Source of the DNA: Escherichia coli
GTDB taxonomy: Bacteria > Pseudomonadota > Gammaproteobacteria > Enterobacterales > Enterobacteriaceae
Direction: 5' to 3' (one strand)
Length of the DNA: 64,000 nt
Assembly (NCBI RefSeq): GCF_003334305.1
Contig: NZ_QOWS01000001.1
The first letter of the stretch is position 1; each line of letters starts with the position of its first letter. Shown here one piece after another: positions 13,459-52,806 of this stretch. A program made the position numbers and the translations under genes. Below the pieces are notes generated by a model, which did not search any database, was not told the origin of the DNA, and was given only the letters and a program-made list of their open reading frames with translations.

Positions 13459-13518
13459 TTCCGCCACTCTGTGCCGGTTTACTGCACCGGCACATTCCCC
13501 CTCCGGCAAAACTTGTCC

Positions 13519-32101: not shown

Positions 32102-32247
32102 TAGCACTTCTACTCCGTAATTGGCAAGACAAACGAGTATATCAGGCATTGGATGTGAATAAAGCGTATAGGTTTACCTCAAACTGCGCGGCTGTGTTAT
32201 AATTTGCGACCTTTGAATCCGGGATACAGTAGAGGGATAGCGGTTAG

Positions 32248-34875
32248 ATGAGCGACCTTGCGAGAGAAATTACACCGGTCAACATTGAGGAAGAGCTGAA
32301 GAGCTCCTATCTGGATTATGCGATGTCGGTCATTGTTGGCCGTGCGCTGCCAGATGTCCGAGATGGCCTGAAGCCGGTACACCGTCGCGTACTTTACGCC
32401 ATGAACGTACTAGGCAATGACTGGAACAAAGCCTATAAAAAATCTGCCCGTGTCGTTGGTGACGTAATCGGTAAATACCATCCCCATGGTGACTCGGCGG
32501 TTTATGACACGATCGTCCGTATGGCGCAGCCATTCTCGCTGCGTTACATGCTGGTAGACGGTCAGGGTAACTTCGGTTCCATCGACGGCGACTCTGCGGC
32601 GGCAATGCGTTATACGGAAATCCGTCTGGCGAAAATTGCCCATGAACTGATGGCCGATCTCGAAAAAGAGACGGTCGATTTCGTTGATAACTATGACGGC
32701 ACGGAAAAAATTCCCGACGTCATGCCAACCAAAATTCCTAACCTGCTGGTGAACGGTTCTTCCGGTATCGCCGTAGGTATGGCAACCAACATCCCGCCGC
32801 ACAACCTGACGGAAGTCATCAACGGTTGTCTGGCGTATATCGATGATGAAGACATCAGCATTGAAGGGCTGATGGAACACATCCCGGGGCCGGACTTCCC
32901 GACGGCGGCAATCATTAACGGTCGTCGCGGTATTGAAGAAGCTTACCGTACCGGTCGCGGCAAGGTGTATATCCGCGCTCGCGCAGAAGTGGAAGTTGAC
33001 GCCAAAACCGGTCGTGAAACCATTATCGTCCACGAAATTCCGTATCAGGTAAACAAAGCGCGCCTGATCGAGAAGATTGCGGAACTGGTAAAAGAAAAAC
33101 GCGTGGAAGGCATCAGCGCGCTGCGTGACGAGTCTGACAAAGACGGTATGCGCATCGTGATTGAAGTGAAACGCGATGCGGTCGGTGAAGTTGTGCTCAA
33201 CAACCTCTACTCCCAGACCCAGTTGCAGGTTTCTTTCGGTATCAACATGGTGGCATTGCACCATGGTCAGCCGAAGATCATGAACCTGAAAGACATCATC
33301 GCGGCGTTTGTTCGTCACCGCCGTGAAGTGGTGACCCGTCGTACTATTTTCGAACTGCGTAAAGCTCGCGATCGTGCTCATATCCTTGAAGCATTAGCCG
33401 TGGCGCTGGCGAACATCGACCCGATCATCGAACTGATCCGTCATGCGCCGACGCCTGCAGAAGCGAAAACTGCGCTGGTTGCTAATCCGTGGCAGCTGGG
33501 CAACGTTGCCGCGATGCTCGAACGTGCTGGCGACGATGCTGCGCGTCCGGAATGGCTGGAGCCAGAGTTCGGCGTGCGTGATGGTCTGTACTACCTGACC
33601 GAACAGCAAGCTCAGGCGATTCTGGATCTGCGTTTGCAGAAACTGACCGGCCTTGAGCACGAAAAACTGCTCGACGAATACAAAGAGCTGCTGGATCAGA
33701 TCGCGGAACTGTTGCGTATTCTTGGTAGCGCCGATCGTTTGATGGAAGTGATCCGTGAAGAGCTGGAGCTGGTTCGTGAACAGTTCGGTGACAAACGTCG
33801 TACTGAAATCACCGCCAACAGCGCAGACATCAACCTGGAAGATCTGATCACTCAGGAAGATGTGGTAGTGACGCTCTCTCACCAGGGCTACGTTAAGTAT
33901 CAGCCGCTTTCTGAATACGAAGCGCAGCGTCGTGGCGGGAAAGGTAAATCTGCCGCACGTATTAAAGAAGAAGACTTTATCGACCGACTGCTGGTGGCGA
34001 ACACTCACGACCATATTCTGTGCTTCTCCAGCCGTGGTCGCGTCTATTCGATGAAAGTTTATCAGTTGCCGGAAGCCACTCGTGGCGCGCGCGGTCGTCC
34101 GATCGTCAACCTGCTGCCGCTGGAGCAGGACGAACGTATCACTGCGATCCTGCCAGTGACCGAGTTTGAAGAAGGCGTGAAAGTCTTCATGGCGACCGCT
34201 AACGGTACCGTGAAGAAAACTGTCCTCACCGAGTTCAACCGTCTGCGTACCGCCGGTAAAGTGGCGATCAAACTGGTTGACGGCGATGAGCTGATCGGCG
34301 TTGACCTGACCAGCGGCGAAGACGAAGTAATGCTGTTCTCCGCTGAAGGTAAAGTGGTGCGCTTTAAAGAGTCTTCTGTCCGTGCGATGGGCTGCAACAC
34401 CACCGGTGTTCGCGGTATTCGCTTAGGTGAAGGCGATAAAGTCGTCTCTCTGATCGTGCCTCGTGGCGATGGCGCAATCCTCACCGCAACGCAAAACGGT
34501 TACGGTAAACGTACCGCAGTGGCGGAATACCCAACCAAGTCGCGTGCGACGAAAGGGGTTATCTCCATCAAGGTTACCGAACGTAACGGTTTAGTTGTTG
34601 GCGCGGTACAGGTAGATGACTGCGACCAGATCATGATGATCACCGATGCCGGTACGCTGGTACGTACTCGCGTTTCGGAAATCAGCATCGTAGGCCGTAA
34701 CACCCAGGGCGTGATCCTCATCCGTACTGCGGAAGATGAAAACGTAGTGGGTCTGCAACGTGTTGCTGAACCGGTTGACGAGGAAGATCTGGATACCATC
34801 GATGGCAGTGCCGCGGAAGGGGACGATGAAATCGCTCCGGAAGTGGACGTTGACGACGAGCCAGAAGAAGAATAA
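32248..34875 (+). CDS. gyrA: DNA gyrase subunit A (875 aa); QRDR wild-type at Ser83 (TCG) and Asp87 (GAC)
   Basis: Matches recalled GyrA from [47 protein letters not shown]; active-site Tyr122 region; acidic C-terminal tail. Confidence 0.97.
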
Positions 34876-34896
34876 TTTTACTTCTTCATGCCAAAA

Positions 34897-34953
34897 GGGA
34901 GCTATCTCCCTTGTTTGAATTGAAAAGTCCAGGCTGCAAAGTCTGGGCTTTTG
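34897..34953 (+). terminator. putative gyrA terminator region (hairpin gggag-ctat-ctccc followed by ttgttt)
   Basis: Stem-loop 22 nt after gyrA stop followed by T-rich tract; second weaker hairpin and T-run downstream. Confidence 0.45.

Positions 34954-35023: not shown

Positions 35024-41870
<6,847 letters not shown>

Positions 41871-47414: not shown

Positions 47415-47425
<11 letters not shown>
44576..47425 (+). CDS. rcsC: hybrid sensor histidine kinase RcsC (949 aa, TTG start)
   Basis: MKYLASFRTTLK N-terminus, HisKA/HATPase motifs, C-terminal receiver domain (VVDDHPINRRLL...DVNMPNMDG). Confidence 0.96.
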
Positions 47426-47618
<193 letters not shown>

Positions 47619-51275: not shown

Positions 51276-51368
51276 AAAAAAAACCGAATGCGAGGCATCC
51301 GGTTGAAATAGGGGTAAACAGACATTCAGAAATGAATGACGGTAATAAATAAAGTTAATGATGATAGC
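51276..51368 (-). ncRNA. micF: MicF antisense sRNA (93 nt)
   Basis: Reverse complement reads GCTATCATCATTAACTTTATTTATTACCGTCATTCATTTCTGAATGTCTGTTTACCCCTATTTCAACCGGATGCCTCGCATTCGGTTTTTTTT, with terminal hairpin and U-run; divergent from ompC. Confidence 0.95.

Positions 51369-52806
<1,438 letters not shown>

Follow-up and report, generated by a model that had tools for sequence, protein, structure and literature searches.

Wild-type quinolone-resistance-determining region in a chromosomal gyrA of Escherichia coli

The segment 32488..32508 of the 64,000-nt stretch of E. coli DNA analysed here (the window, which covers the chromosome from menC to napG) is, with near certainty, the core of the quinolone-resistance-determining region (QRDR) of the chromosomal gyrA gene in its wild-type state, encoding a GyrA that should be drug-sensitive and in which the S83L step has not been taken. 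The segment reads GGT GAC TCG GCG GTT TAT GAC, i.e., G81 D82 S83 A84 V85 Y86 D87. The quinolone-target segment of this gyrA is the reference wild-type allele, a state that is already known and routine.

State of the QRDR

The preliminary description of this DNA had placed TCG at codon 83 and GAC at codon 87 and had concluded that S83L and D87N/G are absent. Codon n of the gene starts at 32248 + 3(n − 1), and by this count both the coordinates and the codons are right (Table 1): Ser83 and Asp87 can be read directly, and the encoded protein equals K-12 GyrA. A misassigned numbering had been named as the possible refutation; the numbering holds, as the protein aligns without gaps, residues 1–875 to 1–875, to the solved E. 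coli chain 6rks_A (875/875 residues identical) and is 100% identical over its whole length to GyrA of K-12 MG1655 (b2231, NP_416734.1). Chain A of the solved structures 6rku, 6rkv and 6rkw likewise agrees with it at each of the 875 residues. The peptide at residues 78–94, described before as unaltered, is indeed the K-12 peptide. The motif HPHGD occurs a single time across the six-frame translation of the window, within these same residues.

The wild-type claim extends beyond the two codons to the complete QRDR, whose limits (Ala67–Gln106) follow bioRxiv 10.1101/372086, and to the whole GyrA protein. Substitutions at S83 (L/W/A/V), at D87 (N/G/Y/H) or at other reported resistance positions were looked for and none was found, with 0 amino-acid differences from K-12.

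Table 1. Coordinates of gyrA, its landmarks and other features of the window
Feature	Coordinates	Strand	Remarks
gyrA CDS, DNA gyrase subunit A	32248..34875	+	ORF of 875 codons plus stop, ATG at 32248
Probable gyrA promoter −10, TGTTATAAT	32195..32203	+	perfect −10 hexamer after TGn; direct reading, 45 nt upstream of ATG
QRDR, codons 67–106 (Ala67..Gln106)	32446..32565	+	40/40 residues identical to K-12
Residues 78–94, previously quoted peptide	32479..32529	+	single occurrence among the window's six frames
Codon 83	32494..32496	+	TCG = Ser, wild type (S83L would be TTG)
Codon 85	32502	+	GTT (K-12 GTC), synonymous; between codons 83 and 87
Codon 87	32506..32508	+	GAC = Asp, wild type (D87N would be AAC; D87G GGC)
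Tyr122, active-site tyrosine	32611..32613	+	TAT, within AAMRYTE
GyrA box QRRGGKG, residues 560–566	33925..33945	+	inside first PF03989 repeat, residues 538–584
Terminator-like hairpin	34895..34912	+	20 nt after gyrA stop
Antisense ORF over gyrA, including the QRDR	32330..32605	−	91 aa
Antisense ORF over gyrA, including the QRDR	32410..33381	−	323 aa
Region of 3,863-bp deletion relative to K-12	13459..14023		junction at 13522; K-12 2358504..2362366
Aldolase pseudogene remnant	13522..13983
Two short pseudogene fragments	21938..22279		between inaA and glpQ; A7 annotation
Alpha-2-macroglobulin family gene	37251..41870	+	downstream of yfaT; start as annotated in A7 = 37356
naRNA4/CssrE (REP-type), first copy	47425..47501	+	rcsC–rcsB intergenic; 76 bits (Rfam)
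naRNA4/CssrE (REP-type), second copy	47539..47615	+	rcsC–rcsB intergenic; 63 bits (Rfam)
MicF antisense RNA	51276..51369	−	upstream of and divergent from ompC; 114 bits (Rfam)
napA CDS	61133..63619	+	G>A at 61364

Drug target and determinants outside the window

Residues 81–87 belong to the N-terminal DNA breakage-reunion domain of GyrA and are near its catalytic Tyr122, and in the drug–enzyme–DNA cleavage complex a chelated Mg2+ bridges the fluoroquinolone to Ser83 and Asp87 via water. According to published work, the keto-acid at C3/C4 of the quinolone chelates Mg2+, two of the four water ligands of the ion form hydrogen bonds with Ser83 and Asp87, and these two residues anchor the water–metal ion bridge in E. 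coli gyrase (PMC9917921). Ciprofloxacin-induced cleavage by the wild-type enzyme is maximal at 10 uM, the S83L and D87N enzymes attain roughly half the wild-type maximum even at 500 uM, and the S83L/D87N double mutant is essentially insensitive to the drug (PMC9917921). With Ser83 and Asp87 intact, the GyrA encoded here should be fully drug-sensitive, because it does not differ from the wild-type enzyme used in studies of this kind; this expectation is drawn from sequence identity. S83L is the commonest and usually the first mutation, with a median 24-fold rise in MIC, and the triple mutant gyrA S83L/D87N plus parC S80I reaches an increase of ~1,500–2,000-fold (bioRxiv 10.1101/372086). Both residues are present in a protein identical to that of K-12 and, therefore, this usual first step has not been taken.

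Of the other readings, the one that survives best is that the strain has reduced fluoroquinolone susceptibility solely through non-target determinants outside the window, GyrA being fully wild type; we regard it as improbable. The candidates are plasmid-borne qnr, aac(6')-Ib-cr, qepA or oqxAB-type pumps, up-regulated efflux and porin loss. The window is 64 kb of a genome of ~4.8 Mb, and MIC can be up to 250-fold higher without any mutation in gyrA or parC (bioRxiv 10.1101/372086). Against this reading stands what can be seen in the window and in the complete genome nearest to it. The window is identical at 63,999 of 64,000 positions to the chromosome of E. coli A7, an isolate from orangutan faeces (NZ_CP028767.1 3164999..3228998, reverse strand), and the corresponding 64 kb of A7 has no annotated parC, parE, gyrB, qnr, aac(6')-Ib, qepA or oqxAB. 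The porin gene ompC is an intact ORF of 367 codons in the window. In A7, taken as a proxy and not as the window's own genome, ParC has S80 (AGC) and E84 (GAA), and ParE has L416, L445 and S458, all wild type, as would be expected of a lineage whose target genotype is fully susceptible. Moreover, target mutations in E. coli normally begin with gyrA S83L (bioRxiv 10.1101/372086), which makes a parC mutation without S83L unlikely.

The remainder of GyrA and its flanks

Substitutions at A51, A67, A84, Q106, A119 and A196 of GyrA have also been reported to give resistance. This raises a second reading, in which gyrA confers resistance through a change elsewhere, be it at other QRDR positions, outside the QRDR or by altered expression. 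Rarer resistance substitutions have been described at G81 and D82 as well (bioRxiv 10.1101/372086). However, all eight of these positions (A51, A67, G81, D82, A84, Q106, A119, A196) are wild type here, and the identity of the protein with that of K-12 rules the reading out at the protein level. As for expression, the 146-bp ubiG–gyrA spacer, which includes TGTTATAAT, is the same as in K-12 apart from a single base at 32103, and the 110 nt that follow the gyrA stop codon are identical to K-12, hairpin included. Taken as a whole, a resistance change elsewhere in gyrA is barely credible next to a wild-type gene.

TGTTATAAT is the probable −10 element of the gyrA promoter; it went unreported in a consensus promoter scan because a −35 match is demanded there as well. 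The base at 32103 is A here and G in K-12, two bases upstream of the ubiG start codon and far from the gyrA −10. No Rfam family or tRNA was found in or beside gyrA. The two antisense ORFs that overlap the gene, including its QRDR (Table 1), are annotated neither in K-12 nor in A7 and were taken as mechanical.

Identity of the gene

The ORF is gyrA, a member of the GyrA family on each feature tested. The protein scores 1310 bits with the NCBIfam equivalog model TIGR01063 (gyrA), which passes its cut-off of 877, and 1258.6 bits with NF004043 (cut-off 902). In Pfam terms, the N-terminal breakage-reunion domain PF00521 covers residues 32–507 (E = 8e-163), and six C-terminal PF03989 repeats, the blades of the beta-pinwheel, extend over residues 538–839. 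Tyr122, the established catalytic residue, is present. The GyrA box, a hallmark that tells GyrA from ParC, is also found, and the gene order yfaL-ubiG-gyrA-yfaA-yfaT is the same as at the K-12 gyrA locus. ATP-dependent negative supercoiling together with GyrB is the activity we infer for the product, since it is identical to the E. coli enzyme that has been characterised in biochemical and structural work. The 2,628-bp ORF matches the annotated gyrA of 5426/5426 complete E. coli genomes, many of them at 100% DNA identity. A chance test has no place for an exact match with a gene that is universally present.

ParC (topoisomerase IV subunit A) has a homologous PF00521 domain, the motif HPHGDS.(V/C)Y(D/E) with its QRDR residues at S80/E84, and the same water–metal ion bridge logic as GyrA (PMC9917921); parC is a separate gene, ~0.88 Mb from gyrA in A7. 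That the gene is this paralogue, or that a misnumbering puts residues 83 and 87 away from the resistance positions, is scarcely conceivable: the two motifs are similar enough to be confused by eye (HPHGDSACYEAMVLMAQ in A7 ParC), but the gapless alignment to 6rks_A, the K-12 identity and the family scores rule it out (all parC models stay under their cut-offs; TIGR01062, parC_Gneg, gives 580.3 bits, under its cut-off of 628.9, vs the 1310 bits of TIGR01063), as the GyrA box and the neighbours ubiG and yfaA do from their side.

Silent differences from K-12 and allele frequencies

At the DNA level gyrA differs from that of K-12, while the protein is the same: there are 12 nucleotide differences, all synonymous, at codons 85, 91, 100, 111, 156, 198, 468, 498, 535, 540, 815 and 852. 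Four of them (codons 85, 91, 100 and 111) fall within or adjoin the QRDR, and codon 85 holds the sole DNA difference from K-12 inside 32488..32508. The exact DNA allele of the window occurs in many complete genomes. The silent pattern at codons 85/91/100/111 is presumably a known lineage polymorphism; a full-text literature search for this pattern returned nothing relevant. The T at 32502, lying between codons 83 and 87, could upset probe-based QRDR genotyping assays built on K-12.

Frequencies were obtained from 5,426 complete E. coli genomes with six 34-nt probes, namely wild type, S83L and S83L+D87N, each with V85 as GTT or GTC; each possible 28-nt megablast seed word must cover codons 82–88 exactly. 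The commonest single state is the wild type, despite the bias of complete genomes, which are enriched for resistant clinical clones (Table 2). GTT, the form of the window, is the commoner of the two wild-type forms. Genomes that escaped all six probes presumably have different substitutions or further silent variants. Resistant alleles (S83L and S83L+D87N) are found in the same gene with the same flanks on both V85 backgrounds, with TTG at codon 83 and AAC at codon 87, whereas the window has TCG and GAC.

Table 2. Core of codons 82–88 of gyrA in 5,426 complete E. coli genomes, a sample biased towards resistant clinical clones
Core	V85 GTT	V85 GTC	Total	Share
Wild type	2,014 (window form)	639 (K-12 form)	2,653	48.9%
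S83L only	413	72	485	8.9%
S83L + D87N	1,371	331	1,702	31.4%
None of six probes matching			586	10.8%

In the same collection, one gyrA copy (S83L+D87N core, GTT background) comes from a record with a plasmid label, and gyrA is present at two places in at least one genome; these may reflect a mislabelled replicon or a duplication.

Other features of the window

The sole difference between the window and A7 is the G>A at 61364 in napA. It is non-synonymous: GGC (Gly) at codon 78 of NapA becomes AGC (Ser), within the motif DPDAPVNR[G>S]LNCIKGYF. A 34-mer carrying the Ser allele is found in 0/5,426 complete E. coli genomes, and its Gly version has an exact match in 4,768. Gly78 presumably belongs to the N-terminal Fe-S cluster segment, which is conserved in molybdopterin oxidoreductases. 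The Gly78Ser change may be either a private mutation or an error of sequencing.

Compared with K-12, the window has a 3,863-bp deletion in the L-rhamnonate utilisation cluster: yfaU/rhmA has lost its 5′ part, yfaV, rhmD and yfaX are missing entirely, and an aldolase pseudogene remnant is left (Table 1). Of the two short fragments between inaA and glpQ, one is a LysR-family remnant that corresponds to K-12 yfaH and the other is hypothetical. The alpha-2-macroglobulin family gene is a single intact ORF in the window as well as in A7, whereas its K-12 counterpart yfaS (b4500) is an annotated pseudogene, with a 98.6% gapless match over the 4.5 kb compared. The Rfam hits include MicF near ompC and two naRNA4/CssrE elements between rcsC and rcsB (Table 1).

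Significance

The wild-type gyrA state is common to about half of complete E. coli genomes; its presence here is unsurprising, says little about mechanism and amounts to routine genotyping. If true, neither a disturbance of assays by the base at 32502 nor a reduced susceptibility from non-target determinants would be new biology. A wild-type gyrA QRDR alone does not establish that a strain is susceptible, as non-target mechanisms can raise the MIC, and susceptibility is not deducible from the window because it does not include parC, parE, gyrB, the efflux regulators (marR/acrR/soxR) or any plasmid genes. What the finding does mean for this E. coli is that it has not acquired the target mutation that comes first and matters most for fluoroquinolone resistance, which makes high-level resistance unlikely.
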